Source of the DNA: Nanobdellota archaeon
GTDB taxonomy: Archaea; EX4484-52; LFW-46
Assembly (NCBI GenBank): GCA_018897155.1
Contig: JAHILE010000040.1
Coordinates: 20,157-84,156 of the forward strand
Direction of reading: 5' to 3'
DNA length: 64,000 nt
Below the pieces are notes generated by a model. It did no database searches, was not told the DNA's origin, and saw nothing but the letters and a program-made list of their open reading frames with translations. This document shows, one piece after another, positions 1,359 through 49,143 of the stretch (the stretch's first letter is position 1; each line of letters begins with the position of its first letter). A program made the position numbers and the translations under genes.

Positions 1359-1374
1359 TGCGTGTAAACTTCAA

Positions 1375-4300
1375 TTACTTCGCATTAAACCTTTCCAGCC
1401 CCAACTGCCTTGCTTTTTTTCCAAACAGGCTGTCAATATCTTTCTCAAGAAGCGAGAACTGCTGAAACAAATATGGCGATATCTTGTACTTTTCAATAAT
1501 ATGCTTTGTAGGCTCAACATATTTCCTTATCGCGCCTTCAGACACCGAAAGCATAAGCTTTCCTCCACAGTAGCACTTCCCGATTAAAGGTACTCTGCGG
1601 TACTTTGCATTACAGGTTGCGCACCGAACTTTCTGCTCTGAAAACGTGCGCAAATTCCCCTTTATGTCGCGAAGAAAATGCTTTGAAATAACCAACTCAG
1701 CCACAGAATCCTTATTCACGGCAACTATCTTCTCTGCAAGACCGAGTTGTGCAGTAACTTTGTCCTTCATGCTGCCAAGCTCCACATACTTTGTCTTAAT
1801 CGGCGCATCATTAACGTCGGCTGTGCCATGAGTGAACTTTATATGAAAGACCTCGGAAGTCTTTATTACATCTGCAACAAGGCGCGGCTTTTTTGTAAGT
1901 TCTGATATTGTTTTATAGTTCATGGTGTCTTCATAGAATTCAAGCGGGTATTCTGAAGAGATATCAACCCGCCATGCCTCATCATCCACTTCCTCAGGAT
2001 TAAGCTTGCTTGTAAGGACGAGTGGCGCATCCATTGTCCTCCCCCCGCGCGTGTCCGGCAAAAACTTACGAGAGAAATTAAGCAATGCATCCATCAAAAG
2101 CATTATTGAGTCTTCGTCGCCATCACAGTTTCCTGCAACAATGCCCGAGCAAATAAGGTTGTGATGCATATCAACAGTTACATCGTAAACATATTTTTCC
2201 CTGTTTTCAATAAACTTCTTGCCCACTATCTTGTCAACAAACGAATCCCCTTCAAGAACTGCTCGCGCAGTGCCTTTCTTTGTGAGCCACTGCTCCAAAA
2301 GTGCTTTGGCGCGAACTTGCTTATCTTCGACAAACCCTATTGTCTCAATATATTTTCTGGCGTCATCACCATATAATCTTATTTTATACGAATGCAAAAA
2401 TTTGGGCTTTCCGTAGAATTTTAAGATTAATTCGCTTTTTATTTCGCGGTTTTCTTCATAAATTGAATGTTTGATGCCCAAAAACATCAAAATTACTGAA
2501 ACAGAATCAATGAGCCACTTATTAACCGAGGTAACATTGACTTCAAGAGTGCTTTGAATGGCGCAGGAGCCATCGCCTGAAAAATATCCTCTTAAAAGTG
2601 CGGCAAGTTTTTCTTTTGGCAAAGAATAAACAAAATTTGGAACTCGTTTGCTTCGCGCGTCCTTTCCAACTTCGAGATAATTAAATAATTCATAAACAAA
2701 CCGCGAGCATATAGTAACTGCATTTCCGGACGTGTTTGGCGTCAAGCCAAAAACATCCTTTATTTTCGTTTCAAGATACGCTTTCACCCGCGCCTTAGTG
2801 GCAGTTATTGAAATCTGATGCGTATTTTTTTGATTTTTCTTTGTATATCCTTCGGCAAGATAAAAGCCCAGAATGCATAAAAAATCCTCGTTAAGAAGAA
2901 TCTCGGGCTTTATAGATATAGAATCCCTTTTGCTTCCAAGAAAATATTTTTTGTTTTCGAATAGATTCTGGCTAAAATGCTCAACAATATCAAGCGGATA
3001 AAACTTTCGATAAACATAATTAGTGAGTGTTTTATAATTCATCCCAAGATTAGCGCTGATTTGCGACAAAATTGTTCCGTTGCCAAAAATCTGCTCTTCG
3101 GTTCTTACCATAACATTTCTGTTATTAACGACATCAAGCAAATCTATTTTCTCAACATCAGATGTAATCGGGTTTTCTATTTGCCACGGTATTAGGACTT
3201 CGGTCGCATCTTCGGCGCGTATTTTTTCACCGCATTTGTTCAATAACAGATGGTCTGGGGTAACAACTATTTTTCTTCCGCACTTAGTTTTAATCTCTAA
3301 CAGGATTTGTGGAGCGGGATGTTTTGAAACATGCGTCATATCCGAAAGCTCGAATTTTTTGGTGAGTTTATTAAAAGCAAATGTTTTCAATCCAGCAATC
3401 GTTTTATATTCTGTTCCAAAAGCGTCTGTTTCAACCCCATCCGTAAGATTCGTCTCCACTAATTCGCGAATAGTTGATAATCTAAACTCTTTTCCATCAT
3501 GTACAATAATTTTTTCGTTGCCAAAAAAACAATTCCTTCTTTTGCCAGCATGCCAGAATGGATGCGCATAACATACTTTTGAACGAGTAAAGCCTACAAT
3601 TCTGCCCACTATGCCTGCAGATGTGTGTGGAGCAAGCCCTACAACCAGCTGACCCACCAAATCCTCTCTTGAGTTCATATTATAATACGGCGGAAGGCTG
3701 TAAAACTTTACAAGAAGCTCGTCGATAAACCTGCTGACATTCAGCATGTAATTTACTGATGAGAACTCTTCATTGTCGGATATGACAATATCCTGTACGC
3801 TCAGCTCAAGAATCTGATTCTCATTTTCAAGCGGTCTGCCCAAATAATCATTCACATAGCCTATGGATTTCAACTTTGCAACAGAAACGCCAAGCTCAGA
3901 TGGCTTGAAGTGTGTCATTGAGATATCAGAAGCATCATATCGTGTAGTGCCGTCCTTATTCACGTAAAGCTCGTATTTTGTACGAAGAACGCCTTTTTCA
4001 AGATATTCCATGCTTCTCTCAGGGCCTGAAACTCCCCTAACGCCTTTGAATAGCTTTGGCAATTGAACAACTGAAATGTTTTTGAACGCCTCATCAAGTA
4101 GCTCTTTCAATTTAATAGTCATCTTACGATATTTTTTTGTAGGCTGGTTGCAGTGCATAGTTGCTTCAACAATGGAATTACATGACTGACAAATATTTCT
4201 CGGAGTTCCGCGCACATTGCATTTTGGGCACATAGAAAATACATTCTCAGCACCGCATGAAGTGCATTTAAAGACCGGAAATTCTGCAGTTACTTTTCCG

Positions 4301-6249
4301 GAGGAATACGCCTCCATGAGATTGCGCATTTTTCCGCCTTCAATGCCGCAGGGAAAAAGTATCTGAGGCTTGCCTTTCAAAAGTCGTTTTTCCGCCTTTT
4401 CTGGTCTGCCCATTCTTATGCCTATGCGCGTCAATCCCCGTTCACGCACCCTTATTCCTGCAAGTTTTGATACTGCAGACATGGCTGATGTTTCCTGCGC
4501 AATAGATGCTAAAATATCTGCAACATTCTCTTTTGTCGGCTTTCCAAGCGAATAATATGCTCCAAGCGATTTTCCGGACAATATTACTTTTTCATCTTTT
4601 ACCGTACAAGGAGTACAAAGGATTTCAAGAATCCGAAATGATTCTGCCTTTGCAAGCGCAGCACGTTCGCCTTCAGCATCATTCTCGATTGTAGCTGTTG
4701 AAAACCATTGAATGAGTTCTTTCAATTCTCCGATTGACAAATCATGCCAAAAGAAATTGTACTCCGGATGAAGCGGTATTCCAAGCTCGCGCGCAATGTC
4801 GAAAGCCTCCGAAATCGTCGGCGGCTTTAAAGCATATTTTTCATAAGAATACTCTGAATTCTTTTCAGAAATTGCTTTTTTCAATTCCAGCAGCCACCAT
4901 TCTTTGCAATAAGCCGAGGGCATCAACATATGATTGTTTGACACAAACTCGCCATATGGAACAACAATATCCCCTAAAGAAAGAATGGACTCAACAGATG
5001 TTTTGTGCTGTTTCACTTCCTCGCGCGTCCTTAGTTCAAGAATGGTTCCATTTCGAAGTTTTACTATCGGAGGATCTATTGTATCGCAAGGCGCACAAAC
5101 AGTGGCCTTTCCAGGAAACTCTGTTGCAAGCTGAGTGCCTACTGCAATGAATTCTGTAAGCCACATCGTAGCAGGGTGCAAAGAAGTTGCTGCAAGCCCT
5201 CCTGTTCTTGAGCGGCCGTATCGTAATCTGAAACCGCCGCGTTTTGAAGGATGTGAGAATATCGGCCTTCCTGCAAGCACTTTTGAAAGATATGTGTCTT
5301 TAGGGGTATATTTTGCCGCATTCGGATTGTCTTTTAGCTCAACCTTTTTTGCAGCATGAATGCTGTTTTTCAGCTTTACAAAATCTGCAAGCCACAGCCA
5401 GTTTTTAAGATCGTATTCTTCAGGATATTTCTTCACCCTGCCAAGAACTTTCTCTGCCTTAAGCGGGATTCCGTCAAGAAGAATCAGGCACATCCCCCCA
5501 CGAATTTTATTTGTTTCAACTCTTGGAAGATCCTTGCAGGTTGAGACTTCAAGCTCTTCTGTAGGGTCTCCAGTAATTTCTACAGGAACGTTTTTTATTA
5601 TTGCGGTCATTTCCTCTTTTGTCGGATGATATTGCTTTGCAGTGACGCGCGTGTAATAATCCTCGACCTCGACAAAATACCGATTTATCTCTGCTTCTGT
5701 GGGCTTGTAAGCACCTATTTTCAGCGCCTTTCTTATGAAATCCGCTGCAAGAACAGAAACTGCTGAGGCGGTTCCTCCTGCAGACCTTATCGGGCCTGCG
5801 TAATAGACTGCAAGATAATCTGTTCCGTCATCATTCTTTTTGATAAGAACTTTTGAAATCCCCTCAAGAGGCGCAGTCACAACACCGAGTGTAAGATAGG
5901 CTACTGCAATGCGCAAACCGACCTCTGCGAATTTTTCTGCGGTTCCAAAATCTCCGTATTTTCCTATTGCAACATTCCTGCCGATAAGAAGCGCCACTCG
6001 CTCGTCATTTTTGCCGTACTTCCCCTCAAGCACCCGTATTCCTTCCTTCAACCCTGAACCAAAAAGCGTTGGAAAAAACGTAGAAACAAGGCCTTCGACT
6101 CTTGCCGCAAGGTCCTCTGCAAGAAGGATTTCAACAGTTGTCTCGGGATCTTTACCTTTTGCGCGAGCAGCTGTTGCAATAGAATATGCATTGTCAACCT
6201 CTTTTTGTATTGAGTCAAAATATTTTTGAGTCTGTGCATCAGTCTGCAT
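1375..6249 (-). CDS. DNA polymerase II (PolD) large subunit DP2, intein-containing
   Basis: The N-terminus is DP2-like ('YFDSIQKEVDNAYSIATAARAKGKDPE'). The conserved 'HPFWHAGKRRN|CDGDED' catalytic block is split by an insertion. The C-terminal Zn finger reads 'CATCNAKYRRVPLIGKCYCGG'. At 1624 aa it is larger than the ~1150 aa expected for DP2. Confidence 0.9.
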   Translation of the reverse strand: MQTDAQTQKYFDSIQKEVDNAYSIATAARAKGKDPETTVEILLAEDLAARVEGLVSTFFPTLFGSGLKEGIRVLEGKYGKNDERVALLIGRNVAIGKYGDFGTAEKFAEVGLRIAVAYLTLGVVTAPLEGISKVLIKKNDDGTDYLAVYYAGPIRSAGGTASAVSVLAADFIRKALKIGAYKPTEAEINRYFVEVEDYYTRVTAKQYHPTKEEMTAIIKNVPVEITGDPTEELEVSTCKDLPRVETNKIRGGMCLILLDGIPLKAEKVLGRVKKYPEEYDLKNWLWLADFVKLKNSIHAAKKVELKDNPNAAKYTPKDTYLSKVLAGRPIFSHPSKRGGFRLRYGRSRTGGLAATSLHPATMWLTEFIAVGTQLATEFPGKATVCAPCDTIDPPIVKLRNGTILELRTREEVKQHKTSVESILSLGDIVVPYGEFVSNNHMLMPSAYCKEWWLLELKKAISEKNSEYSYEKYALKPPTISEAFDIARELGIPLHPEYNFFWHDLSIGELKELIQWFSTATIENDAEGERAALAKAESFRILEILCTPCTVKDEKVILSGKSLGAYYSLGKPTKENVADILASIAQETSAMSAVSKLAGIRVRERGLTRIGIRMGRPEKAEKRLLKGKPQILFPCGIEGGKMRNLMEAYSSGKVTAEFPVFKCTSCGAENVFSMCPKCNVRGTPRNICQSCNSIVEATMHCNQPTKKYRKMTIKLKELLDEAFKNISVVQLPKLFKGVRGVSGPERSMEYLEKGVLRTKYELYVNKDGTTRYDASDISMTHFKPSELGVSVAKLKSIGYVNDYLGRPLENENQILELSVQDIVISDNEEFSSVNYMLNVSRFIDELLVKFYSLPPYYNMNSREDLVGQLVVGLAPHTSAGIVGRIVGFTRSKVCYAHPFWHAGKRRNCFFGNEKIIVHDGKEFRLSTIRELVETNLTDGVETDAFGTEYKTIAGLKTFAFNKLTKKFELSDMTHVSKHPAPQILLEIKTKCGRKIVVTPDHLLLNKCGEKIRAEDATEVLIPWQIENPITSDVEKIDLLDVVNNRNVMVRTEEQIFGNGTILSQISANLGMNYKTLTNYVYRKFYPLDIVEHFSQNLFENKKYFLGSKRDSISIKPEILLNEDFLCILGFYLAEGYTKKNQKNTHQISITATKARVKAYLETKIKDVFGLTPNTSGNAVTICSRFVYELFNYLEVGKDARSKRVPNFVYSLPKEKLAALLRGYFSGDGSCAIQSTLEVNVTSVNKWLIDSVSVILMFLGIKHSIYEENREIKSELILKFYGKPKFLHSYKIRLYGDDARKYIETIGFVEDKQVRAKALLEQWLTKKGTARAVLEGDSFVDKIVGKKFIENREKYVYDVTVDMHHNLICSGIVAGNCDGDEDSIMLLMDALLNFSRKFLPDTRGGRTMDAPLVLTSKLNPEEVDDEAWRVDISSEYPLEFYEDTMNYKTISELTKKPRLVADVIKTSEVFHIKFTHGTADVNDAPIKTKYVELGSMKDKVTAQLGLAEKIVAVNKDSVAELVISKHFLRDIKGNLRTFSEQKVRCATCNAKYRRVPLIGKCYCGGKLMLSVSEGAIRKYVEPTKHIIEKYKISPYLFQQFSLLEKDIDSLFGKKARQLGLERFNAK
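2128..3531 (-). other. intein (468 aa) with LAGLIDADG homing-endonuclease domain inside DP2
   Basis: It begins 'CFFGNEKIIVHDG' directly after 'AGKRRN' and ends 'ICSGIVAGN' directly before extein 'CDGDEDS'. Two LAGLIDADG motifs are present: 'LCILGFYLAEGYT' and 'LLRGYFSGDGS'. Confidence 0.75.
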
Positions 6250-6323
6250 AAGTGTATTGTGCAGATGAGATTTTTAAAAGAAAGGCTTGTAAGGATTATT
6301 AATTAATACTCCTTAGTGATGCA

Positions 6324-7061
6324 ATGATAAATCATATTTATGAATCCGTTGGATCTTCGTATTCTAATTCGGGCATATCATACAATCTACCCAGCTCTAT
6401 CGAAAATCTGAAAAAGGAATATCATTTTAAAAAAATCGGTGCGTCGATAAATCTCCAGAAGGTGGGATCTGTTAAAATCGGATCATCTGCTAACAATCTA
6501 TACGCAATATTGCTTGAATTTTCAGACACAATTCCTTTTTCAATAACTAAAAAGGATGAAGTAACGTTGGACGCGTTTATGGATCTTAGAGGTAATGAAA
6601 ACGTTATTGATGAATTAAAAAGAATATCGGAAGAAGAAATACATCAGAAAAGAATGGAACTTCAAGATAGTCTTGAAAAAAGATTTCAAAAAGTAGGTAG
6701 TATTCATGTCTCAAAACCTGAAGAAATATTAAAAAAACATATAGACGCTCATCTAACCGTCCCCTACTCTGTTTTAGGTGTTATAAGTGGCGTAATAATG
6801 ATATATGGCGGCGAAACATTAGCTGAAAAAATACTTGGCGGTACTCTTGCCATTGGATCCCCCACAGCCACTACTTTGCTTGGAGAGGGCATATACAGTA
6901 GTGATAAAACGGTCATTCAAGTAGCATTGAACAATAAAGCCGATTCAGAAATAGAGTGCTTATTCAAATCCGCATACCCTGAAATGACACTATCTCTCTC
7001 GAAAAGAGAAATTGCCGCGCTTATCATTAAGGAAAGCGTTAGTGAAGGGAAAAAAATTTGA
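6324..7061 (+). CDS. hypothetical protein (C-terminal hydrophobic segment)
   Basis: A 245-aa ORF with no recognisable motifs. Confidence 0.35.
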   Translation: MINHIYESVGSSYSNSGISYNLPSSIENLKKEYHFKKIGASINLQKVGSVKIGSSANNLYAILLEFSDTIPFSITKKDEVTLDAFMDLRGNENVIDELKRISEEEIHQKRMELQDSLEKRFQKVGSIHVSKPEEILKKHIDAHLTVPYSVLGVISGVIMIYGGETLAEKILGGTLAIGSPTATTLLGEGIYSSDKTVIQVALNNKADSEIECLFKSAYPEMTLSLSKREIAALIIKESVSEGKKI

Positions 7062-7132
7062 AAACACATACCAATCCATAAAACATATAAGGGCTAAAGA
7101 CGCTTTCCACGATAAAGATATCTAAAATATGA

Positions 7133-7318
7133 AGCCCTGGGCGCGAATTTCACCGGTTCTGGGCAGACATGCGACCTCAACGAAGTTGAAGTCGCTCCTT
7201 CTTTCTTTTCCACCCGGACTTGTCTATTCTTTCTTGAAAAGAAAGAAAAGAAACCATGTTTTGAACGCACGACCTTTACCTTACCAAGGTAACGCTCCAC
7301 CAGCTGAGCTACCAGGGC
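7133..7318 (-). tRNA. tRNA-Thr(GGU) with ~115-nt intron in the T-loop region
   Basis: Minus-strand read: GCCCTGG-TA-GCTC AGCTGGTG GAGC-G-TTACC TTGGTAA GGTAA-AGGTC-GTGCG TTCAA[...]-CGCGC-CCAGGGC. The acceptor, D, anticodon and T stems all pair. The T-loop is interrupted after TTCAAA by an insert with long CT/GA-rich complementary arms. Confidence 0.6.
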
Positions 7319-7378
7319 ACTGACATAACTAGAGAATGAATCTTTTTATTAGTTTAAAAATTCACCCATAAGCCGCTG

Positions 7379-7393
7379 TTTAAATTATATATA
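7379..7393 (+). promoter_or_regulatory. putative archaeal TATA/BRE element upstream of ORF 7420
   Basis: The motif 'tttaaattatatata' lies ~30 bp upstream of the ORF start. Confidence 0.3.
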
Positions 7394-7419
7394 CTCGCGC
7401 ATCGAATAGTAATGTATAT

Positions 7420-7971
7420 TTGCAATTTGGTGATTTTCTGGGGAAAAAAGATGAGGTTGAAATTAAAGGCGATGATGACTATGAAATTGTAGCTCTTTCA
7501 CCCATAAGGCGTCTTGAAAAACGGCTTGAAACAATGGAAAACACAAAGACTACAAACAATCTTGAAAAATTCATCGACAAAATGATGGACATGGTGGAAC
7601 TAAACCAAAAGATCATTGAAGATATTGTCAGATCCAACCAGGCAACGCGCGAAGATATTGGAATACTTGTGGGAAAACTTGATTCTTTGCAGGCAAAAAT
7701 ATCGAGCTTTGTAGAGATGGTTCAAAGCGCTGCGGAGTCAGATGTTGCCCAGACCGCTGCCGAAAGTACAACAGAAACAATAAAGCCGCTAATAGACCGC
7801 CTCGAAACAATGAGCGACCAGACAAAGGAAACAAACGCCCAGCTAGTCGAAAGCCTCGGAAACATAGAAAAGCTTCTAAGAAAACAGCCTCAATCAACAC
7901 TACCTACATCGCCGTCCAGCCAGACTGCTCGTGACATTCTTGCAAGGCGAGGCATAAGACCTCAAGAATAA
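7420..7971 (+). CDS. hypothetical coiled-coil protein
   Basis: A 183-aa ORF with an apparent TTG start, predicted helical and charged. Confidence 0.4.
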   Translation: MQFGDFLGKKDEVEIKGDDDYEIVALSPIRRLEKRLETMENTKTTNNLEKFIDKMMDMVELNQKIIEDIVRSNQATREDIGILVGKLDSLQAKISSFVEMVQSAAESDVAQTAAESTTETIKPLIDRLETMSDQTKETNAQLVESLGNIEKLLRKQPQSTLPTSPSSQTARDILARRGIRPQE

Positions 7972-7987
7972 TTGGAGAATGAATTAA

Positions 7988-8224
7988 ATGAGATCCGATC
8001 CAAAACATATGGAGCTCGTATTAATCGCTGCAATAATAACAGTAACCATTGTAACATTCGTGCTAATTTTAGCAGGCACTCTTTCAAATACGCCGCAAAC
8101 AACTCTAATAAATGTGAGTCTGCTTATGATATTTGGCGGATTGCTGCTATTAAGCATCATAAGCCTTCAGATATATGACAAACTGATAGAAATTAATGAA
8201 ACACTGAAAACGAGACATAAATGA
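7988..8224 (+). CDS. small membrane protein (2 TM)
   Basis: Two hydrophobic segments: 'LVLIAAIITVTIVTFVLILAG' and 'LLMIFGGLLLLSIISL'. Confidence 0.3.
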   Translation: MRSDPKHMELVLIAAIITVTIVTFVLILAGTLSNTPQTTLINVSLLMIFGGLLLLSIISLQIYDKLIEINETLKTRHK

Positions 8225-10238: not shown

Positions 10239-11852
10239 ATGAGCTTTAAATTTCTGTTATTCATACTCATTCTTCTTTCTCCGATTACAAATGCCGAAAT
10301 AACCATAAACGAAATAATGTACGCGCCAAACAGCAACTGGGGTGGAGAAAATAATGAGTGGATAGAATTGTTTAATAACGGCATAGAAGATGCAAGCATC
10401 GCAAACTGGACAATCGATGAAAAAACAATACCTTACGCCATCGTTCCGGCGCAAGGATATTTAATCCTTGCAAAAAACACAACAAAATTCATAGAAGTAT
10501 ACGGCCGATCGTCTGTCCGCGTACCGTTTACGCTTTCAAACAGTGGAAAGGCGCTGTACTTAAAAACAGCTGGCGGCTCAACAATAGATTCCTTCGAGTA
10601 TACAGAATACGCCACTAGCGAGATGGCCAAAAACAACAACCGCACACTTGAACGAAATACAACAATCTGGCTTGAAAGCGCTGGGGTTGGTGGAACTCCG
10701 GGAGAGCAAAACAGCATATCATTCAACGCGCCTCCGGTTCAAACTCCAATGAATGAAACGAAAAACACAACAAATACAACACCATCCACAAATACTCAAG
10801 AAAATGACAGTGATATCCCGAACACGCAACAAAATCAGGAATCAGAAAATCCAATGAGCCTCGAAATACTTGTCGCGCCGGATACAATGAACTTCGGCGG
10901 ATATTCCACGATTCGTGCAAAATTCAATTCAGGAAACCGAGACTTCGAAACAGTGCGCTTTGTAGCATACATCTATAAGCCGTCGTGGATTTTGCGCGAC
11001 CTGAATGGCAACGGAACAACGCTGCGAAATTCGCCATATAATTCAAATGCTGCTGCAGAAGTTCGAGAAATTTCCGCAGACGAAACATATTATCTCGTAC
11101 TCCCGATTTTTCTAAAATGCAACACAGAAGGATATGCTGATGCCACCTATACAGCCCGGCTGCGCGCTTATACTTATGAAAACGACGAATGGAAGGCGCT
11201 AACAGAAAGCGACATAAATATTTTTGTCAGTGGAGAAAGCGAATCTTGCAAAAAAGAAATTGGAAAAGAAACCTCGTGCATAAATAAAACAATTGAAAAA
11301 AACTGCACTGAAAAAACAAAAATATTGCGCGAATATGCGCTTGAAATCAACATCACTCACCCGGAAATTATTTTTGCCGGCGAAAATTTCACTACAACGG
11401 TTTTTCTAAAAAACAATGGCGAAAAATTGCGCGACATTGAAATATACTCATACATGTACGAGCATAGCACAATAATATCAAGCGGATTTGATGGCACAAA
11501 ATGGGGCAATACAAGAACTGCGAACTCGAGAAAAGTAACGCTTTCAGCAAACGATTCCATAACAATTGAACTTTTGAATCGGGCAAAAGAAAATGCAAGC
11601 ACGGAAAAGTACACCTATAAGGTAGTTTTTGCTGATTTGGCGGACGATAAAAAATCAGAGGAACGAATATCTCTGATTGAGCTTGATGCGCGCAATGCAT
11701 CTGAAACTAACGGCTTAAAAAACGAAACGCTTTCAAACATGACCGAAATAGAAAATAAAATTACCGGGAATATGCTTGCGAAAAACGCAGTACCGAAAAA
11801 GCTTTCGCTTTTTGACAGAATAATATATAAAATAAAAAGCTGGCTAATTTAA
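10239..11852 (+). CDS. secreted lamin-tail-domain (LTD) protein with many N-glycosylation sequons
   Basis: An N-terminal signal peptide is present. The LTD signature reads 'INEIMYAPNS...NEWIELFNNG...ANWTIDEK'. There are more than 15 N-x-S/T sequons. Confidence 0.55.
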   Translation: MSFKFLLFILILLSPITNAEITINEIMYAPNSNWGGENNEWIELFNNGIEDASIANWTIDEKTIPYAIVPAQGYLILAKNTTKFIEVYGRSSVRVPFTLSNSGKALYLKTAGGSTIDSFEYTEYATSEMAKNNNRTLERNTTIWLESAGVGGTPGEQNSISFNAPPVQTPMNETKNTTNTTPSTNTQENDSDIPNTQQNQESENPMSLEILVAPDTMNFGGYSTIRAKFNSGNRDFETVRFVAYIYKPSWILRDLNGNGTTLRNSPYNSNAAAEVREISADETYYLVLPIFLKCNTEGYADATYTARLRAYTYENDEWKALTESDINIFVSGESESCKKEIGKETSCINKTIEKNCTEKTKILREYALEINITHPEIIFAGENFTTTVFLKNNGEKLRDIEIYSYMYEHSTIISSGFDGTKWGNTRTANSRKVTLSANDSITIELLNRAKENASTEKYTYKVVFADLADDKKSEERISLIELDARNASETNGLKNETLSNMTEIENKITGNMLAKNAVPKKLSLFDRIIYKIKSWLI

Positions 11853-12134: not shown

Positions 12135-12347
12135 CGATGCCGTTTTTCAAGAAATTGTGGTTAAAACACAAATACGAGAGATAATAGCCCTTTTTAAAGA
12201 TGGAAAAACAATAAGAATTATCGAGCGAGTTCAAAAACATTTGATAAATATATACATAAAAAATATATACGTATTCTAGTGTCTTTTGGATTCCCGTATC
12301 CTCGCGCGTTCGTGCCCGGATATATGAAAACAAAAAAGGCGTAATTA

Positions 12348-40923: not shown

Positions 40924-41101
40924 GCCTCGGTAGCTCAGCTCGGTGGAGCGCGTGACTTGTACGTTAATACAAACGCGAGACTCGTACGCTCGTGATATGT
41001 CTTCAAAGCAAAGATATCACGCGGTCGAGGGTTCAAAAACAGGATTTTGTTTAAAGTGGATAACATCTCAGCATTTCCTGTGGAACTTCCCTCCCGAGGC
41101 T
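40924..41101 (+). tRNA. tRNA-Thr(UGU) with two introns (anticodon loop and T-loop)
   Basis: GCCTCGG-TA-GCTC AGCTCGGTG GAGC. The anticodon stem is CGTGA/TCACG with loop CTTGTA|intron(~55 nt)|A. The T-stem GAGGG...CCCTC is interrupted after TTCAAAA by ~50 nt. The acceptor 3' strand CCGAGGC is perfectly complementary. Confidence 0.55.
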
Positions 41102-41412
41102 TAAACTATTTTTTAAGCTTTTTTTGTAATTGTAAAGCACATTTGAATAATAAAATTACTTGAAAACCTGAAGAATTTACTTAATTTTTCATTATTTTTT
41201 ATAAAATCGTGGGCAGAATACCCACAAATTTATTTGTGGGATGAATGCCGTGCCTCTTTTCAGTTTTTGTGCGAGAGGCAGAAACAGTAAAAACATTTAA
41301 TAGAGTTTTCTGTTCATTCTGGCTCATTAGAGCAATTGGGACTAAGTATCAAGGGGACAATTTTAATTCGTAGGGGAGGGAGCGACCTGTTTTGTTCTTT
41401 TACAAAAGCAAA

Positions 41413-43593
41413 TTATAGTTTTAAGAATTTCCAGTCCGATAAGTTATTCTCATCATAATTGTATCTTTCATTATCGTTATATCTACAACTCTCATCTTTA
41501 AAGATAATAATCCCGCCAAATAGCTTTTTATTATGCTTTTGATTTTGTGTTTTAATGTATTTGCTTAGTGCTTCTGCTTTTTCTTTAGCGACTTTTGCGG
41601 TTATTCCACTTTTAGTATCAAAAATACCTATTCTTCCATCATCAAGCATAATTACAAAATCAACATAAAATCCTCTTTCCACACCTGCATCGTCTTTATA
41701 TTTTACTGCAAGGTATTTTTTATCTGATTCTCCGTTTTTGAACCACCATTTAACAGAATTTTTTGGATTTTCAAGTAGTTTTATGAAATCTTTTTCTGGC
41801 ACACTTTCGGCAGAAATAAAATAAGGTTTCATAATTGCTTTTTTATGTGGCAATTCTTTGTATTTGCTGTTATAAGTTATTAGTTTGGGAACATTCCAGA
41901 CAAGATGCTCTGTTTCTCTTTGTTCTGGCAATCCTCCAACAATCTTGAGTTTGTATTCCTCTTTTGCTTCATTAATGCAATCAGTAAATAACTGATTATT
42001 TTCTTCTCCTAAAATTATCTTTTGAGCAAAAGTTTCATCTTCGATTTTTATTACTTTTTCAAAAAACTTATAGAGTGCTGTTCTTATTCTTCCTTGTGAA
42101 TCAGCAGGAGCAAAAGGAGTACAGCTTCCTCTTACAAATAAGTCAAATCTATGTTGTAATTCAACAGCACTTAACTTAAATTGCATTTCTCCTTTATGTT
42201 CTACTGTTTGAACTTTATCTAAAACCAATATTTTTCCATCAACCATTATTTTAGTTACGAGAGATTTTGGCTTTAGATTTATTTTCTTTGCAAGTTCGCT
42301 TTTTTGTGCAATTTCTAAGAATAATTTTGTAAATTCTCCAGAAAGTCTTGTCTTTTCTCTTTGTCTTATGAGATAGATTGAATTAAGATCAATATTGCTA
42401 TATAATTCTTCTCTTCTTTTTGCTTCGTAAATTGTGATATAATCTTTAGCGACTTCTTCAGTTATGTTAATGTCAGCAAGATTTGTGAATACATAACCTT
42501 TATTCAATTCTTCAGTTTCATAATGCTTAAACTCTGGCATTCTCATTATTCTGCCTACTGTCTGAATGGTAAAGTCCATACTTTGCATATCTCTGAACAT
42601 TACCAGAATGTATGCTCTTGGACAATCCCAACCTAATGCTATAGCTTGTTTGAAAATAAGAACTTGAACATCGTTATCAGGCATTTCAATATTCTCAAGG
42701 TTGGTTTTTTCTTCTGATAAATAAATCCCTAATTTTCCGTTTTCTGTTGTTATTTTGAATTTATCTCTTAAAATTCCCGTAATCTGTTCTTGCCTGTCAA
42801 TAACTCCTGTCTTTTTATCAGGAAGCTGAATTAAAATTAATGGATTGATATCGGATTTTTCTTTTTCTAATAGTTTAAGCATTTCCTGTCTTTTCTTTAA
42901 AGCACATTCAATAACTAATTCATCAGGAGATTTGTCAGAAACTTTTCCTTTGTCTAATTCTGGATTTATGGCAATTTCTTTCTTTATCATTCCCTCTTTT
43001 CTTACATCTTCAAATTCTACAAGAACATTATAAAAAGAATGAATGTGCGGAGTAGCTGAAACTTCCAAAATTACATCGGGATCAATATCATTTATTAAAT
43101 TTCTTGAAGTTTCTGTTTTAGCAGTAAAGTGACTTTCGTCTATAATTAAAACTATTTTTGTGCCGTCTTCTTTCGTGTTTTCAATAATTTTAGATAAATT
43201 TCTTTCCTGTTCATTTTCTCTAATATAAACATTATCTGTTTTGTTTATGCTTTCCCAATTCAAGAACAAAATTTCATCTGGCTCAATTTTATTACCTACT
43301 AAATCTTCAAAAAATTTACACTCTATCGCTCTTGTCGTAGAATAATATTTATCTAATTTTTCTTTACTTTGTGTATGTAATTGTCTTGGAGCTGTCCAAA
43401 TAAAAGCGATTTGCTTTCCATCGTCTCTTCTATCAACAAGTCTTTTAATAAATTCGGCCACCATTAAAGTTTTACCAGAGCCTGTCGGAGATTTAAAAAC
43501 TAAAGTTTCTCTTGAATCTCGATTTAGTAATTCGTTAATCTGTTCTTTTAGTTTTAAAATTGCTTTCTCTTGATAATCTTTAATTTCAATCAT
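41413..43593 (-). CDS. Type III restriction enzyme Res subunit (SF2 helicase + PD-(D/E)xK nuclease)
   Basis: Walker A 'SPTGSGKT', DEAH-like 'LIIDESH' and a C-terminal 'VDFVIMLDDGRIGIFDTK' nuclease motif. Confidence 0.75.
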   Translation of the reverse strand: MIEIKDYQEKAILKLKEQINELLNRDSRETLVFKSPTGSGKTLMVAEFIKRLVDRRDDGKQIAFIWTAPRQLHTQSKEKLDKYYSTTRAIECKFFEDLVGNKIEPDEILFLNWESINKTDNVYIRENEQERNLSKIIENTKEDGTKIVLIIDESHFTAKTETSRNLINDIDPDVILEVSATPHIHSFYNVLVEFEDVRKEGMIKKEIAINPELDKGKVSDKSPDELVIECALKKRQEMLKLLEKEKSDINPLILIQLPDKKTGVIDRQEQITGILRDKFKITTENGKLGIYLSEEKTNLENIEMPDNDVQVLIFKQAIALGWDCPRAYILVMFRDMQSMDFTIQTVGRIMRMPEFKHYETEELNKGYVFTNLADINITEEVAKDYITIYEAKRREELYSNIDLNSIYLIRQREKTRLSGEFTKLFLEIAQKSELAKKINLKPKSLVTKIMVDGKILVLDKVQTVEHKGEMQFKLSAVELQHRFDLFVRGSCTPFAPADSQGRIRTALYKFFEKVIKIEDETFAQKIILGEENNQLFTDCINEAKEEYKLKIVGGLPEQRETEHLVWNVPKLITYNSKYKELPHKKAIMKPYFISAESVPEKDFIKLLENPKNSVKWWFKNGESDKKYLAVKYKDDAGVERGFYVDFVIMLDDGRIGIFDTKSGITAKVAKEKAEALSKYIKTQNQKHNKKLFGGIIIFKDESCRYNDNERYNYDENNLSDWKFLKL

Positions 43594-45337
43594 TCTTGAA
43601 AACCTTCCTATAAACTTTTAAGATTGTTTCTGGAATAGGACATAAAGTAACTTTGTTTTTAATGGTTTTAAATTCCTTTGTCGGCACAGAATCATCATGC
43701 GAGAATACATATACATGGATTTTTCCGTTTATTTTTTCTGCTTCTTTGACAAATTCATCAATATACTCGTCATCAAATACTATTCCTAAATGCAGTTTAT
43801 CATTTTTGAAAATCTTGAATTTCTTTGTGTCTTTGACTTTTTCAAAAGTATTTTCCTTAATGCAAAGCATTTCTGTGCAGTTATCAACCAGTTTACGCTT
43901 GTTTTTATCTGTTTGCTCTGCTTCAACAAAATCTGTTTTATAATATTTGAGATTACCGCCAAGACCTTCGATTTTTTCGTTAGATGCGTTAGTATATCCT
44001 TTAATTATTTTTTGTATTCTTGGATAACATACATCTGAGCAAATATTGCCTTCATTATTAGTGCATAAAATAAATGATAAATCTTGATTGAGTTCATCGT
44101 TTAGTTCCATTACTGCATGGCCTGTAGTTCCTGAACCTGCCATGAAATCTAAGACAACGCCTTTTTCTGGACAAGAATATTTAATTAGTTCTTTAAGTAA
44201 TTTCTTAGGTTTTGGATAATTAAATAATTGTTTACCAAATATATTTCTAAGCTCCTTTGTCGCAGCTTGATTTAAATCAGATTGCATTATTTTTATTCCA
44301 TTTTCGTCTTCTTCAGAATCAATGGCGACTTTTTTTATAACCGATGCTTCTATCCATGTTGATAAAGGTTTAAAGTTAGATTTTAACTCGTTTGCAAACC
44401 GTTTATATTGTGGTGTTCCGTTCTCTTTTTTTGGAAAGATTACTTTACCTGCTTTAATCTCATTTAACATTCTAACTCTCTCAAAACGCCAAACCCTGCT
44501 TGGATTAGCAGGATAAACCTTTCCTGTTTTAGGGTCGGTTATATCATAATATAAATTAGGTCTTTCATCTTTTGTTTTACCGCAAGTAAGATCTCCTGCT
44601 GTCCAAGGGCCCCTAGGGTCGTTATTAGGATTCTTATAGTTGCTTAAATCTTTCTCTATACCAAAAAGAGAGGCTTTTTCTGATTTTTTATAGCAAAAAA
44701 TATATTCATGGTCAGTTGATACTAAATTTTTTGGATCATTTGCTCCACTTCTTCTTTTCCAAACAAAATTAGCTACAAAATTGGTCTCTCCAAATATATC
44801 CTCACAGAGTAGTTTTAATTGTGCATTTTCATTATCATCAATCGAGATAAAAATAATTCCTGTATCTTTTAGTAGATTTTTAGCAAGAGCTAAACGCTTA
44901 CTCATAAAAGAAAGCCATTTACTATGTCTATATCCATCTTCTTTATCTACAAATTTATCATTATACTTAAAATCCTTATTTCCTGTGTTATACGGTGGAT
45001 CTATATAGATAACATCCACAGAATTTTTATGTGTGAAATTAAGAACAGCAAGTGAATGGTAATTATCTCCTTCAATTAAAAGATTAACTGGCTTGTCTTT
45101 ATCTGAATTTATCTCTTTATCTTTTACTTCTGCTAAAACTGGAAACTTATCTTTACTTTCTGGGCTAAATTCTTCTTTAGTCTTTTCGCCTTCCCAGTTA
45201 ATGAATAAGTCAAAATCTTCTTTAGTTTTCTCTCGTTCCCAAACTAAACCGTAAGTTTTTTGCTTCTTTAAAGCCAAAATTTCTCTTATGAGCTCCTCTT
45301 TTGACCATTCAATGTAATTTCTTTTTCCATTAACCAT
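43586..45337 (-). CDS. Type III restriction-modification Mod subunit (N6-adenine DNA methyltransferase, beta class)
   Basis: Motif IV 'IYIDPPYN' precedes motif I 'LDFMAGSGTTGHA'. The gene overlaps res by 8 nt. Confidence 0.8.
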   Translation of the reverse strand: MVNGKRNYIEWSKEELIREILALKKQKTYGLVWEREKTKEDFDLFINWEGEKTKEEFSPESKDKFPVLAEVKDKEINSDKDKPVNLLIEGDNYHSLAVLNFTHKNSVDVIYIDPPYNTGNKDFKYNDKFVDKEDGYRHSKWLSFMSKRLALAKNLLKDTGIIFISIDDNENAQLKLLCEDIFGETNFVANFVWKRRSGANDPKNLVSTDHEYIFCYKKSEKASLFGIEKDLSNYKNPNNDPRGPWTAGDLTCGKTKDERPNLYYDITDPKTGKVYPANPSRVWRFERVRMLNEIKAGKVIFPKKENGTPQYKRFANELKSNFKPLSTWIEASVIKKVAIDSEEDENGIKIMQSDLNQAATKELRNIFGKQLFNYPKPKKLLKELIKYSCPEKGVVLDFMAGSGTTGHAVMELNDELNQDLSFILCTNNEGNICSDVCYPRIQKIIKGYTNASNEKIEGLGGNLKYYKTDFVEAEQTDKNKRKLVDNCTEMLCIKENTFEKVKDTKKFKIFKNDKLHLGIVFDDEYIDEFVKEAEKINGKIHVYVFSHDDSVPTKEFKTIKNKVTLCPIPETILKVYRKVFKND

Positions 45338-45391
45338 TTATTTGTTCCCCTTTATTCTCAATATAACCTATGATGTTTATTAATGTTTTTC

Positions 45392-46030
45392 TTATTTAAC
45401 CATTGTGTTGCATTCTTCTAATCTTTCACAAAGCAAACTGGCAAAACTCAGATATTTTAATGCCCTGTTTTTATCTTTTTGGATAATATTCTCATGTCCC
45501 TTTGGGTTTCTTATACCCATTATTGCACCTGCATAAAGATGCATAAATCCTTCTTGTTCATCTTTATCTGATTGGGATACAAGTCCATTCATTTTTAGTA
45601 GAGGGCTATTTACACTAAAAGCAGTTAGCATAAGACTTTTACCATCCAAGTCTTTGCGACAAGATTTCTCTTTAACAAGATTATTTATTTTCTTAAAAGC
45701 CTCAAAAATTGCTTGAGCATAATGTTTATCATAAAATAATTTTTTACTGACGGATTCTATTTCAGGATGGATATTTAATAATCTAAAATATTCCACTTCT
45801 GTTTTTTTCCCTTCATAGAAATCCGCATTATTTTTTTGAATCCAACCTTTATCCTCTAAACGTAAGAATTTTTTACAGGATTTAAGTTGCATTAAAATAT
45901 TTGAGCAGGTTATTTGATATTCGTCAAAAAGTTTGTTTTTTACGTCGCTTGGCCTTCTATGTTCTAGAAAGTATCCATTTTTCCATAATTCGCTTATTGC
46001 AGTATTTATTTTCATGTTAATCAGATACAT
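45392..46030 (-). CDS. hypothetical protein in RM island
   Basis: A 212-aa ORF with no catalytic motif recognised. It lies on the same strand immediately upstream of mod. Confidence 0.35.
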   Translation of the reverse strand: MYLINMKINTAISELWKNGYFLEHRRPSDVKNKLFDEYQITCSNILMQLKSCKKFLRLEDKGWIQKNNADFYEGKKTEVEYFRLLNIHPEIESVSKKLFYDKHYAQAIFEAFKKINNLVKEKSCRKDLDGKSLMLTAFSVNSPLLKMNGLVSQSDKDEQEGFMHLYAGAIMGIRNPKGHENIIQKDKNRALKYLSFASLLCERLEECNTMVK

Positions 46031-46394
46031 AAGCCCATTTCTTTAATTTTGTCCCATTATTTAGCGTCTTGGTCTTTTTAAGAGAGCCATTCCTAACAAT
46101 ATTCCTTAGTGGGAGCGTAATGTCTGATGCTTTAAAATGGTAGTCTTTTTCTTTTAACTTATCCAACATTTCTTTTACAGTTCTAGGTTGATTAAAAAAG
46201 TTTCCTAAAGAAAGAATCTTCTCAGTAGTGCTTCCTTTTCTGTACCAGTTAGCTAATTTCTCACTTTTCACTTCTTTGGATTTAGACGCTGGCTCTTTGC
46301 GTTCTAAAAGGGTAATTCTTCTTTCATGGTCATCAAGAATTGCCTTAAACTCTTTTTCTGTTATCATCTTTATCATCTCCGAACATAAACCCAC
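46017..46394 (-). CDS. small winged-helix-like protein, paralog 1
   Basis: Its C-terminal half aligns with ORF 46373..46741 (ILxxGFFNxPxxxxE...KKWxYV). Confidence 0.4.
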   Translation of the reverse strand: MGLCSEMIKMITEKEFKAILDDHERRITLLERKEPASKSKEVKSEKLANWYRKGSTTEKILSLGNFFNQPRTVKEMLDKLKEKDYHFKASDITLPLRNIVRNGSLKKTKTLNNGTKLKKWAYVSD

Positions 46395-46741
46395 TTTTTC
46401 TCTTGTTTAATTCTTCTTAATTCCTTACCTTTTACCAATCCTAGAACTATTGCAGATAAGGTGGTAATTGGGATAAATGTTCCTTGTTCTTCAAGCCCTT
46501 GTTTCAATTCAGCCAGACTTTTTGGCTTGTTAAAAAATCCTTCTGCAAGAATCTTTCTGATAGTATCTGTTATAGTTGGTTTTGAATTAGCCTTAGCTTT
46601 GATAAATTTTTTAAATTCTTTTGCAGGAGTTTCAGGAGTTTTTTCATCTTTATATAGATTCATAACTTTTGAAATCTCTTCTGGAGTACCCTCTATAACA
46701 ATTTTAGTCCCATCTTTTGTTTCAATATTTGCTTTAGTCAT
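46373..46741 (-). CDS. small winged-helix-like protein, paralog 2
   Basis: 'TITDTIRKILAEGFFNKPKSLAELKQGLEE...KKWVYVRR'. Confidence 0.4.
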   Translation of the reverse strand: MTKANIETKDGTKIVIEGTPEEISKVMNLYKDEKTPETPAKEFKKFIKAKANSKPTITDTIRKILAEGFFNKPKSLAELKQGLEEQGTFIPITTLSAIVLGLVKGKELRRIKQEKKWVYVRR

Positions 46742-46799
46742 TTTTAATCGCCCTTAATAACATAATAGTGTAATAATGCAATAGTATTTAAATCTTTCG

Positions 46800-47600
46800 C
46801 CTATTTGTCCAGTGGTTCGTAGTTTCGTCGCCCCCTCCCCTGTTCGTCGTTTTTCGTTTAAATTTGTCCCCCTTCTTGAGATTTCACTTTGTGAAATCTC
46901 CTATTGTTAGCTGTCCTTTCAATTCTGTAGGGCATCCATAAATATCATATTCAAAGACATCTTTGCCTTGCTGTTCTTGAATGTATCTCTTAACTTGCTC
47001 TTGTGAAACGTGTCCAGCAGAGCCACAGTAATAACCTCTTGCCCAGAGGTTATCAAAACCTTTGCCGAAGTGCTGTTTATATCCAAGATACCTTAATTCA
47101 GGAAAGCATCGCCTTAATTGTATTGAAGTATTGCCTTTCAGCTTATGAATTATCTTGAAAGGAGTTACTGTCGGCTTTGCACCTACGAATAGATGCAAGT
47201 GGTCAGGCATAATCTCGAATGCCAGATTGCTAATGCTCATTTCTTGGCATTGCCCTTCAATGATTGCTTTCAGAACTTCAACAACCTTTCCAGTCAATAC
47301 TGGCTTCCTGTATTTTGGAATCCAAATAATGTGGTAATTGATGTTGTATTTGCAATGGTGAGATGTCCTCACAGTTGCGATTTTACTCTCGATTTTGTGC
47401 ACTTCTGGATTGAAGTGCGGATATAGTTTTTTAGTCATAGCGACCACCTCATGCTGAAGGTGGTTGCTTGTATCGTTAGGGGGTTCTCGTTTAGCGAACC
47501 ATACATTAAACTTTTAGCGTAGCGACCTCTGCAAGAGGGAAAAGTTTAAGTTAAATGGTTTGCGTGAGAAACCCCCAGCTTTAGCTGGATTTATTTTGGG
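46800..47600 (-). mobile_element. IS200-like insertion (TnpA only) with subterminal hairpins
   Basis: A perfect hairpin GAGATTTCAC-TTT-GTGAAATCTC (46878-46900) overlaps the tnpA stop. Imperfect palindromes GGGGGTTCTC/GAGAAACCCCC lie at 47474-47582. No tnpB was found, and the boundaries are approximate. Confidence 0.45.
46884..47447 (-). CDS. tnpA: IS200/IS605-family transposase TnpA (HUH Y1)
   Basis: 'YHIIWIPKYRKPVL', 'DHLHLFV' (HuH), 'LKGNTSIQLRRCFPEL' and 'WARGYYCGSAGHVSQEQVKRYIQEQ'. Confidence 0.85.
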   Translation of the reverse strand: MVAMTKKLYPHFNPEVHKIESKIATVRTSHHCKYNINYHIIWIPKYRKPVLTGKVVEVLKAIIEGQCQEMSISNLAFEIMPDHLHLFVGAKPTVTPFKIIHKLKGNTSIQLRRCFPELRYLGYKQHFGKGFDNLWARGYYCGSAGHVSQEQVKRYIQEQQGKDVFEYDIYGCPTELKGQLTIGDFTK

Positions 47601-47632
47601 AGTATGTTATTTCTAAAAATAAATATTATTTA

Positions 47633-47764
47633 TCTCCCACCCCATCATTTCCCTTAGAGATGTTTTTTGATTTTTCAATATGTTGCTATTGTTATAACAA
47701 TGTTATATTCGGTTCTATATAGGTATAGTATATAGTTCCATACGAAATGATGGGGTGGGGGTGT
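47633..47764. promoter_or_regulatory. predicted replication origin core: 16-bp perfect inverted ORB-like repeats flanking ~90-bp AT-rich DUE, upstream of orc1/cdc6
   Basis: 'GGGAAATGATGGGGTGGG' (antisense at 47633-47653) and 'GAAATGATGGGGTGGGGGTG' (47745-47764) face each other across AT-rich DNA. The GGAAATGA...GGGGT core resembles archaeal ORB elements. Confidence 0.5.
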
Positions 47765-47922: not shown

Positions 47923-49143
47923 TTGATGCAAATGGCTCAAACAACAATTCAGCAAATATTCTCTAATTATATGACAAAGCAACCGCTTTTTTTAGATAAA
48001 CGAGCACTTACTACATCATACACACCGGAAAATGTTCCGCATAGGGAAGAACAGATATCACAACTTGCATCGATTGTCACTCCTGTTCTGAAAAAAGAGA
48101 GGCCTTCAAATGTTTTTATATACGGTCCAACAGGAAGTGGCAAAACACTTGTTACGCAATATGTTGCATCAGAGCTAAAAACGGCGGCAAAAAACAACAA
48201 CATACCATTTCATATTGTTTATGTGAATTGTAAAATGAAACGCGTGGCTGATACAGAGTACCGCCTCCTTGCGCACCTTGCAAATCTGCTCGGAAAAACC
48301 GTACCGCCCACAGGCTTGCCCACAGATCAGGTATATAAGATATTTTACAGCGCGCTTGATGAGCGTGAAGGCGTGGTTATATTTATCATTGACGAAATAG
48401 ACGCGCTTATTAAAAAAGTCGGTGACGAACTGCTTTACAATTTTACAAGAATGAATCAAGATATAAAAAATGTAAAGGTGTCTATAATCGGTATTTCAAA
48501 CGACATTGCATTTACAGAAAATCTTGATGCGCGTGTCCGATCATCCCTTTCAGAAGAGGAACTTCTCTTTCCACCATATAACGCACTTCAGCTTCAAAGA
48601 ATACTTTCAGAGCGCGCAAGCATAGCATTCAATAAATCAAAAGTATCCGATGGCGTGATTTCAAAATGTGCGGCTCTTGCAGCCCAGGAACATGGCGATG
48701 CAAGGCGCGCATTGGATTTATTGAGGGTTGCAGGAGAGCTTGCAGAGCGTGAAAACGCGCCAATGGTTGAGGAAAAGCATGTTGATGCCGCAGAATCAAA
48801 GGTTGACCTGGACCGGGTAATAGAAACAGTAAAAATGCAGCCCAAACAGTCAAAAGCAATACTTTACAGCATAATTTATCTTACGCGCGGTGATGAAAAG
48901 ACCTGCCTTTCAGGCGATGTTTATGAGGAATATGTGCGCATCACAAAGGTCCTTGGCCTTAAGCCCCTGACACAGAGGCGTGTTTCTGACATAATTTCAG
49001 AGCTTGACATAATGGGTGTAATAACGTCAAAAGTCATAAGCAAGGGGAGGTATGGGAGAATGCGTGATATTGGCCTTGCTATATCGACGGAGATTTACCA
49101 AAAACTGCTGAATTTTTTAAAGAGCGATTTTGGATTTGATTAA
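47923..49143 (+). CDS. orc1: Orc1/Cdc6 replication initiator
   Basis: An AAA+ domain ('IYGPTGSGKT', 'IIDEIDAL') plus a C-terminal winged helix. Confidence 0.85.
   Translation: MMQMAQTTIQQIFSNYMTKQPLFLDKRALTTSYTPENVPHREEQISQLASIVTPVLKKERPSNVFIYGPTGSGKTLVTQYVASELKTAAKNNNIPFHIVYVNCKMKRVADTEYRLLAHLANLLGKTVPPTGLPTDQVYKIFYSALDEREGVVIFIIDEIDALIKKVGDELLYNFTRMNQDIKNVKVSIIGISNDIAFTENLDARVRSSLSEEELLFPPYNALQLQRILSERASIAFNKSKVSDGVISKCAALAAQEHGDARRALDLLRVAGELAERENAPMVEEKHVDAAESKVDLDRVIETVKMQPKQSKAILYSIIYLTRGDEKTCLSGDVYEEYVRITKVLGLKPLTQRRVSDIISELDIMGVITSKVISKGRYGRMRDIGLAISTEIYQKLLNFLKSDFGFD

Follow-up and report, generated by a model that had tools for sequence, protein, structure and literature searches.

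A Type III restriction-modification operon in the passenger region of a probable IS200/IS605-family transposon from a DPANN archaeon

The 64-kb stretch of DNA analysed here (the window: 64,000 nucleotides of contig JAHILE010000040.1, positions 20,157 to 84,156, from Nanobdellota assembly GCA_018897155.1; coordinates below are those of the window unless a locus is named) belongs to a DPANN archaeon (a Nanoarchaeota/DPANN genome). Between a tRNA-Thr gene and orc1/cdc6 it carries an AT-rich island with a Type III restriction-modification (R-M) operon and, beside this, a tnpA gene for a Y1 HUH transposase. An earlier note, made from the sequence alone, had described the island as a mobilised cassette that ends in a pair of inverted G-rich repeats and is bounded on its outer side by an IS200 copy. 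Comparison with related loci (cited below by number, L081 and so on) points to a larger unit. The transposase gene, the operon and the sequence just beyond the operon probably form a single transposon of the IS200/IS605 family, 6,406 bp in length (41201-47606), whose top strand is the minus strand of the window and which consists of a left end (LE), tnpA, a passenger region and a right end (RE).

The passenger genes are all read on the minus strand. Orf122 (46373-46741) is a small protein, annotated as hypothetical by NCBI, that matches no family, and orf125 (46017-46394), whose start codon is uncertain, has no significant family match. The next gene (45392-46030) encodes a 212-residue protein of the Hypoth_Ymh/TIGR02391 family (PF09509, E = 4.6e-34; TIGR02391, E = 2.2e-23), so that the description of three small unknown proteins in the earlier note holds for the first two only. 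The last two genes, mod (43586-45337; 583 residues, PF01555) and res (41413-43593; 726 residues, PF04851), overlap by 8 nt (43586-43593), just as had been noted. Proteins identical to this Mod and this Res are deposited at NCBI under 'Nanoarchaeota archaeon'. In Mod the motif DPPY precedes FxGSG, an order that places the protein in the beta class of N6-adenine methyltransferases, and Mod matches two solved structures, the Mod of 6k0w (1.7e-67) and the EcoP15I Mod of 4zcf (1.1e-42). Res combines an SF2 helicase with a PD-(D/E)xK nuclease; the motifs PTGSGKT, DESH and QxxGRxxR and the C-terminal D645…D659-T-K661 are invariant among 20 homologues. At the sequence level Res matches no solved structure in the PDB, its nuclease assignment is by motif only, and the protein is short. 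A TATA-like box, ATTTAAATA (46785-46793, minus strand), read from the sequence about 45 nt upstream of orf122, is likely the promoter of the passenger operon; in L114 and L120, a homologous GGCG…AAGATTTA(T)AAATA precedes the cargo operons.

Judged by its sequence, the cargo qualifies as a Type III R-M system. Like EcoP15I and EcoP1I, it has an overlapping mod-res operon, a beta-class Mod that matches that of EcoP15I, and a Res that joins an SF2 helicase to a C-terminal PD-(D/E)xK motif. It differs from them by its short Res and by the three small genes upstream, including the one for the TIGR02391 protein. The target-recognition domain (TRD) of Mod has been swapped between the window and L081, as the central part of mod (43962-44752) has no DNA homology to an L081 allele that is otherwise 88% identical. 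Thus, these nearly identical systems probably recognise different sequences.

The base composition of the island sets it apart from its surroundings. The GC content of 41102-46874 is 0.307, while 460 windows of the same size elsewhere in the 64 kb average 0.414 ± 0.012 with a minimum of 0.39. The GC content at third codon positions is 0.20-0.24 for res, mod and the ymh-like gene versus 0.29-0.51 for all other long open reading frames (ORFs) of the window. These checks bear out the drop in GC that the earlier note had described, and they support the view that the island is foreign DNA. The GC content of tnpA (0.40) is close to that of the host (0.41) rather than to that of the cargo (0.31).

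The transposase gene lies on the minus strand at 46884-47447 (PF01797, E = 1.8e-34), and translation probably starts at the ATG at 47438, which gives a protein of 184 residues. TnpA aligns with the solved structures of the IS200, ISHp608 and ISDra2 transposases (2ec2, 2f4f, 2a6m and 2xm3), with conservation of the HLH motif and of the catalytic tyrosine in KRYIQEQ, and is an intact Y1 transposase. Homologues of 97% identity are abundant in metagenomes. Full-length short copies of the element, 1.5-1.9 kb in length, were found in 13 contigs with at least three types of flank (L188, L189-L197). Instead of tnpB, these copies carry a gene for a 206-residue protein with a DPPF motif, which overlaps tnpA by 11 nt, and a gene for a 50-residue zinc-ribbon protein (10548-11168 and 11168-11320, respectively, in L189). 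The 206-residue protein gives a sub-threshold match to N6_N4_Mtase (E = 5e-5). This accessory pair has no description for the IS200/IS605 family.

The ends of the element were set at the positions where homology stops across independent flanking contexts, eight for LE and seven for RE. LE (47448-47606, minus strand) starts with CATACTCCCAAAATAAAT, which is followed by the hairpin CCAGCTaaAGCTGG (47575-47588). When the IS200 of the window is aligned with relatives from four unrelated contexts (TnpA 86-95% identical), the onset of homology is sharp at CATACTCCC (47606), and homology ends at the tnpA stop codon; thus, the tnpA of the window has no RE of its own directly beside it. In all eight contexts, LE begins at the same nucleotide after AAT(G/A)A. 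The target pentanucleotide in the window (47607-47611) reads AATAA on the top strand, and AATGA in other copies. Two other positions for the end of the IS were tried and rejected. An end at the tnpA stop codon (…TCAA) was discarded after the full-length copies revealed the actual RE, and the G-rich motif as right end or target, which was considered on account of a junction in L091 between an IS LE and the motif, was discarded since the multi-context alignment puts the ends elsewhere.

RE (41201-41320, minus strand) contains three hairpins, H1 (41221-41240), H2 (41252-41279) and H3 (about 41283-41316), and a 20-nt tail that ends …CGATTTTAT at 41201. The earlier note had correctly described palindromes at the first two of these positions, but their identity is that of RE hairpins of the transposon. 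The full-length short copies end in a hairpin and TAT(T/C)C…GCCACGATTTTAT, which are homologous to the reverse complement of 41201-41245: their terminus is the hairpin CCCAACAATaaATTGTTGGG followed by TATCCTTGCCACGATTTTAT, and its counterpart in the window is the hairpin CCCACAAATaaATTTGTGGG followed by TATTCTGCCCACGATTTTAT. The last nucleotide of RE is identical in position in front of seven unrelated flanks, those in the window, L120, L177, L178, L188, L189 and L190. The RE flanks are also unrelated to the LE flanks, and there is no target duplication. In L120, RE lies next to another flank and accompanies a different Type III system.

Two further loci show the same layout of LE, tnpA and RE with other passengers. 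In L177 and L178 the outer 125 nt beyond res (41201-41320) occur without R-M genes; they follow the same IS200 at a distance of 1.8 kb and keep their orientation relative to it, and the outer edge of this segment is the exact point at which L177 and L178 diverge. The passengers in L177 are a 444-residue protein and a DUF4364 protein. Homology between the window and the cargo-less L177 stops near 41315; next to it, at 41321-41352, is a linker (…gagcaattgggactaagtatcaa) found only in R-M-bearing variants. L177 and L178 are otherwise identical contigs, and their divergence at position 5465, the right end of the IS, where one continues with a DsbA-like gene and the other with a YjbQ / PIN-MazE block, suggests a rearrangement associated with the IS end or an adjacent insertion.

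The hairpins near the two ends are subterminal, lying 18 nt from the 5' end in LE and 20 nt from the 3' end in RE, and the element has no terminal inverted repeats (TIRs). The LE hairpin covaries, with CCAGCT/AGCTGG in the window versus CACACT/AGTGTG in L189 and L190. The RE hairpin covaries as well, and in the RE region all three hairpins are conserved, with four compensatory pairs among three sequences. No extended inverted repeat links the sequence beyond the IS LE with the RE region, and Rfam has no family for either the RE region or the G-rich repeats. The RE of the window is downstream of tnpA and on the correct strand. The junction of tnpA and cargo is confirmed by an independent ENA assembly (L199), which matches it with 100% identity.

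The Y1 transposase, the subterminal hairpins, the lack of TIRs, the fixed target and the lack of a duplication together lead to the conclusion that 41201-47606 is one element, an IS200/IS605-family transposon that acquired the AT-rich Type III R-M operon between tnpA and RE. We assign this reading a probability of roughly 0.75. By the features that can be read from sequence, the outer unit belongs to IS200/IS605. The IS200 copy, which the earlier note took for the outer boundary of the island, is then the transposase module of the element itself. Continued transposition of the whole 6.4-kb unit is something we infer.

If the element behaves as IS608 and ISDra2 do, the subterminal LE and RE hairpins of its top (minus) strand would be recognised by TnpA, and this strand would be excised as a single-stranded circle. 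The circle would then be pasted 3' of AAT(G/A)A in single-stranded DNA at a replication fork, an event that yields neither TIRs nor a target duplication. In the window, the element would have landed between tRNA-Thr and a replication origin on the cdc6 side. A perfect 16-bp inverted pair, CCCACCCCATCATTTC (47636-47651) and GAAATGATGGGGTGGG (47744-47759), surrounds a 92-bp AT-rich spacer (47652-47743) about 165 nt upstream of orc1/cdc6 (47923-49143), and the GC skew switches sign at this pair, from negative leftward to positive rightward. The pair and its spacer look like a replication origin with boxes resembling origin recognition boxes (ORBs), and LE of the transposon is only 30 nt away. The IS200/IS605 family has a reported insertion preference for the lagging-strand template (PMC5027513). 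Since the top strand of the element is the lagging-strand template for a leftward fork from the adjacent origin-like site, its orientation fits this preference. A likeness of the G-rich motif itself to origin recognition boxes was considered and rejected, since the motif is not oriented as such boxes would be and the actual ORB-like pair is elsewhere.

Several points weigh against a single transposon. Neither a second complete 6.4-kb copy nor an empty site was found among the fetched loci and 80 loci with Cdc6 relatives, and R-M-bearing variants in other chromosomal contexts are partial copies only (L120, L091). In L091, a decayed LE beside an EF-2 gene has lost tnpA and is joined at a GGGGG microhomology to the G-rich core, with the cargo following. 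The distance from LE to RE, 6.4 kb, is about four times the usual length. Excision of IS608 drops as the length of the element grows. In addition, the outer module of L081, L114 and L090 (B-type), which also ends precisely, is not alignable to the RE of the window and thus is not a demonstrated Y1 end. Y1 transposition also leaves the role of the inverted repeats unexplained. Finally, the juxtaposition of LE and RE could be secondary, with a truncated IS lying beside a solo RE.

In its extreme form, this last objection holds that the R-M island arrived by some other means, for example through a tRNA-targeting integrase that has since been lost, and came to lie between a truncated IS200 and a miniature element derived from RE. 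The island does adjoin a tRNA gene, and related R-M systems are found on integrase islands, as in L085 with its two integrases and in L147 with its 15-nt att repeat of the tRNA 3' end. However, 41102-47606 contains no integrase or remnant of one, and the 3' end of the tRNA is not repeated directly at the far side of the island; the integrase/att model was rejected on these grounds. Moreover, tnpA has no other RE, the RE that is present is correctly oriented, and a layout of LE, cargo and RE type recurs in L091 and L177. An unrelated juxtaposition seems very unlikely.

Compared with described members of IS200/IS605 (IS608/ISHp608, ISDra2 and the Sulfolobus IS200-like elements), the window element is alike in its Y1 HUH transposase, its subterminal hairpins and its lack of TIRs, as well as in its fixed short target, which lies 5' of the insertion and is not duplicated, and in an orientation that is consistent with the lagging-strand template. 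In contrast, classical members are 0.7-2 kb in length and contain tnpA with or without tnpB, whereas the window element spans 6.4 kb and carries a five-gene defence operon. Literature searches found no description of an IS200/IS605 member with R-M cargo; reviews credit the family with transposition-related genes only.

Within the transposon, a pair of inverted G-rich repeats brackets the passenger region. The motif AGGGGAGGGRGCGAC, with up to two mismatches allowed, has exactly two matches in the 64 kb, at 41372-41386 (plus strand) and 46827-46841 (minus strand), where chance would give 0.01; none of 100 shuffles gave two. The core GGGGAGGGGGCG, with up to one mismatch, occurs almost exclusively beside related R-M cassettes in 2.08 Mb of fetched loci. 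The motif is thus rare and associated with R-M genes, and the suspicion that it might lack positional specificity falls away. The strings and the opposite orientation given in the earlier note are right, although its positions (41377-41391 and 46816-46832) are 5 to 11 nt off. Each core is part of a longer arm. The RE-proximal arm (41353-41386, plus strand) consists of GGGGACAATTTTA, a 6-nt spacer and AGGGGAGGGAGCGAC, which holds the core, and the tnpA-proximal arm (46827-46872, minus strand) consists of GGGGGACAAATTTA, a 17-nt ACGA-rich spacer and AGGGGAGGGGGCGAC, again with the core. The arms are therefore imperfect inverted repeats of 34 and 46 nt with the composition GGGGACAA(T/A)TTTA, CGA-rich spacer and G-rich core, and they differ by an 11-nt indel in the spacer. 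A small hairpin, GTTCTTTTACAAAAGC (41394-41409), lies between res and the G-rich core, and it stays with the RE-side arm in either orientation of the cargo.

Inverted G-rich repeats recur in six metagenomic loci, around different R-M cargos and in either orientation. In L081-84/L089, L090 and L091, which come from groundwater and sediment metagenomes, Res is 90-93% identical to that of the window and the same inverted G-rich cores flank the cargo. In these loci a 51-residue ORF upstream of mod replaces orf122, orf125 and the ymh-like gene, and Mod has a different TRD. L114, whose Res is only 54% identical, has the same arms, between which the cargo faces the other way. Its repeat-bracketed passenger region (1218-8045) holds Type III mod and res together with a Dcm C5-methylase and a BbrUII/HgiDII-family enzyme with HATPase_c_3 (Type II). 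In L120 (Res 53% identical) the cargo is likewise inverted relative to the window. The G-rich repeats are absent from cargo-less IS copies, and no comparable repeats surround the passenger region of the short copies, which indicates that the repeats arrived together with the R-M cargo or were built for it.

The earlier note had taken these repeats for the TIRs of the mobilised cassette. The view that the DNA that they enclose is foreign and mobile is supported, and they are conserved around related Type III cassettes elsewhere, but they are not the termini of a demonstrable unit. In every context, conservation runs outward past the G-rich cores, through the spacer and GGGACAATTTTA and for about 30 nt more on the RE side; thus, the cores are not the ends of whatever moved. 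The termini that can be demonstrated are those of the transposon, LE at 47606 and RE at 41201, and no target-site duplication flanks the repeats in the window.

A TIR reading can nevertheless be kept in a nested form, in which the G-rich / GGGACAATTTTA repeats are the TIRs of a non-autonomous DDE-type cassette (a mobile insertion cassette, MIC) that was moved by a transposase encoded elsewhere and inserted into the passenger region of the IS. It would fit with conservation of the repeats at both ends of four different cargo sets and with their absence from cargo-less copies. In L081 and L114, a 9-nt sequence, CGAAACGAC, adjoins each core on its outer side as a direct repeat, in the manner of a target duplication. 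A homologous Type III system is carried by a genuine DDE transposon in L152, and bacterial R-M units without a transposase, but with TIRs and 8-bp duplications, have been reported (PMC2853133). Nevertheless, the conserved sequence outside the cores argues against their being termini, and the 9-nt repeat, which lies in a low-complexity ACGA tract, counts as a single observation because L081 and L114 share the same flanks. The window itself has no convincing duplication (ACGACGAAC versus ACGAATTAA). In addition, searches of the 64-kb window, of 2 Mb of loci and of viral contigs found no transposase with GGGGACAATTTTA…GGGGAGGGGGCGAC ends; the one match to the repeats in viral contigs is attributable to chance. 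Such a cassette is possible but less likely than not.

The nested reading is compatible with a Y1 transposon as the outer unit. Among the readings of the repeats it is ranked first, with low confidence, and our leading guess is that they are the remnants or the ends of a nested cassette and now act as points of recombination or exchange. The bacterial units described by Furuta, Abe and Kobayashi in 2010 are a close comparison: they encode no transposase, their inverted repeats are at the true termini with an 8-bp target duplication, and the empty site is documented (PMC2853133). The window resembles these units and MICs in its imperfect repeats around R-M genes, in the lack of a transposase between the repeats and in its foreign composition. 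It differs in that its repeats are internal to a Y1 element and that a duplication is doubtful.

Alternatively, the repeats could be functional sites of the carrier itself, either recombination or inversion points at which cargo is swapped or flipped, or arms that pair in a single-stranded intermediate and so bring LE and RE together. Consistent with such a role, the cargo differs and is inverted with respect to constant arms (L081 versus L114; the window versus L120), and the repeats are confined to the long R-M-bearing variants and missing from the 1.5-2.6-kb copies. When juxtaposed, the arms are computed to form a DNA duplex of -27 kcal/mol (z = -8.2). Yet the element encodes no recombinase, the identity between oppositely oriented cargos is only about 54%, which gives no sign of recent flipping, and homologous recombination in the shared backbone would suffice for an exchange of cargo. 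Furthermore, the arms are separated by 5.4 kb and could pair only while both were single-stranded, which is the very limitation that the pairing is meant to solve. On balance this role seems unlikely.

A third explanation that still stands is that the repeats are a by-product of an inverted duplication of RE-proximal sequence. It draws on L081 and L114, where a patchy inverted repeat runs for about 100-190 nt to the precisely ending outer module on the RE side. In L081 (3463-3556 versus 7678-7860), and also in L114, this long repeat around the cargo is made up of the blocks GTTATACGC, TTAAATTTTAGTGGCA, GGGACAATTTTA and the G-rich core. In both loci the arm next to mod reproduces the terminal module of the res side in shortened, inverted form. 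This module, the B-type module of L081, L114 and L090, ends precisely (…GCGTATAACAG) in three contexts, and its hairpins covary (TCCC/GGGA, TGCC/GGCA, CGG/CCG).

The most far-reaching picture is that of a DPANN lineage of IS200/IS605 that has turned into a carrier of defence genes. Such elements would have a constant backbone of LE, tnpA and RE and a "cargo bay" between conserved inverted repeats of about 40 nt, in which different R-M modules (Type III by itself or combined with Type II) would be exchanged or flipped; pairing of the arms in the single-stranded intermediate would loop out the cargo and so allow an element of four times the usual length to move. This picture is speculative, and in its full form it is improbable.

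Related Type III systems travel on vehicles of other kinds as well. L152 (134-6247) is a bona fide DDE transposon: its 100-bp TIRs are 99% identical, its target duplication measures 8 bp (TAAGTTCT), and its transposase is IS240-like. It carries a Type III mod/res pair that shares 52% identity with that of the window. The window element carries the same R-M family and has none of its TIRs, duplication or DDE transposase. In L147, a related Type III system is found in an 11-kb island at a tRNA gene, with a 15-nt direct repeat of the tRNA 3' end, CTCGCCCCCTCCGCA (about 1190-1220 and 12175-12203). In L085, an 88%-identical Res lies beside two tyrosine-integrase genes. Paired segments were also noted in L161 (1-133 and 6200-6332), L166 (1875-2141 and 8794-9060) and L157 (17-67 and 6331-6381). 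L161 contains a helix-turn-helix (HTH) controller and an AAA_15/AAA_21 ATPase, and L166 an HTH controller and an SMC-like protein.

The tRNA-Thr(UGU) gene that flanks the island (40924-41101) has two introns, one of 54 nt at position 37/38 (40962-41015) and one of 50 nt in the T-loop (41038-41087). As it stands, it is called by neither ARAGORN nor Rfam; once both introns are spliced out by hand, ARAGORN calls a tRNA-Thr. On the other side, the neighbouring Cdc6 is at most 66% identical to its best match in species-representative genomes. The synteny of CDC48 and tRNA-Thr was found in none of the 80 genome loci with Cdc6 relatives (at most 66% identity), so that the relatives of the source genome do not share the local gene order. 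Exact-protein look-ups with the Res and the Cdc6 of the window returned no contigs.

An R-M island on a mobile element is in itself ordinary. What is unusual here is the vehicle, its size, its position beside a probable origin, and a repeat-bracketed passenger region with interchangeable cargo. With a complete R-M operon on board, an IS200/IS605 member would give defence systems a new vehicle that uses a single-strand route, and the element lies next to a probable replication origin, where single-stranded DNA is available. The host lineage, DPANN, is one of tiny genomes and heavy reliance on horizontal acquisition. The same Type III family is present on at least four kinds of vehicle, namely a Y1 IS, a DDE transposon, tRNA/integrase islands and inverted-repeat-flanked units without a transposase, and thus offers a compact view of the spread of R-M systems. 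Interchangeable cargo between conserved repeats could serve as a tractable model for the capture of cargo by single-strand transposons.

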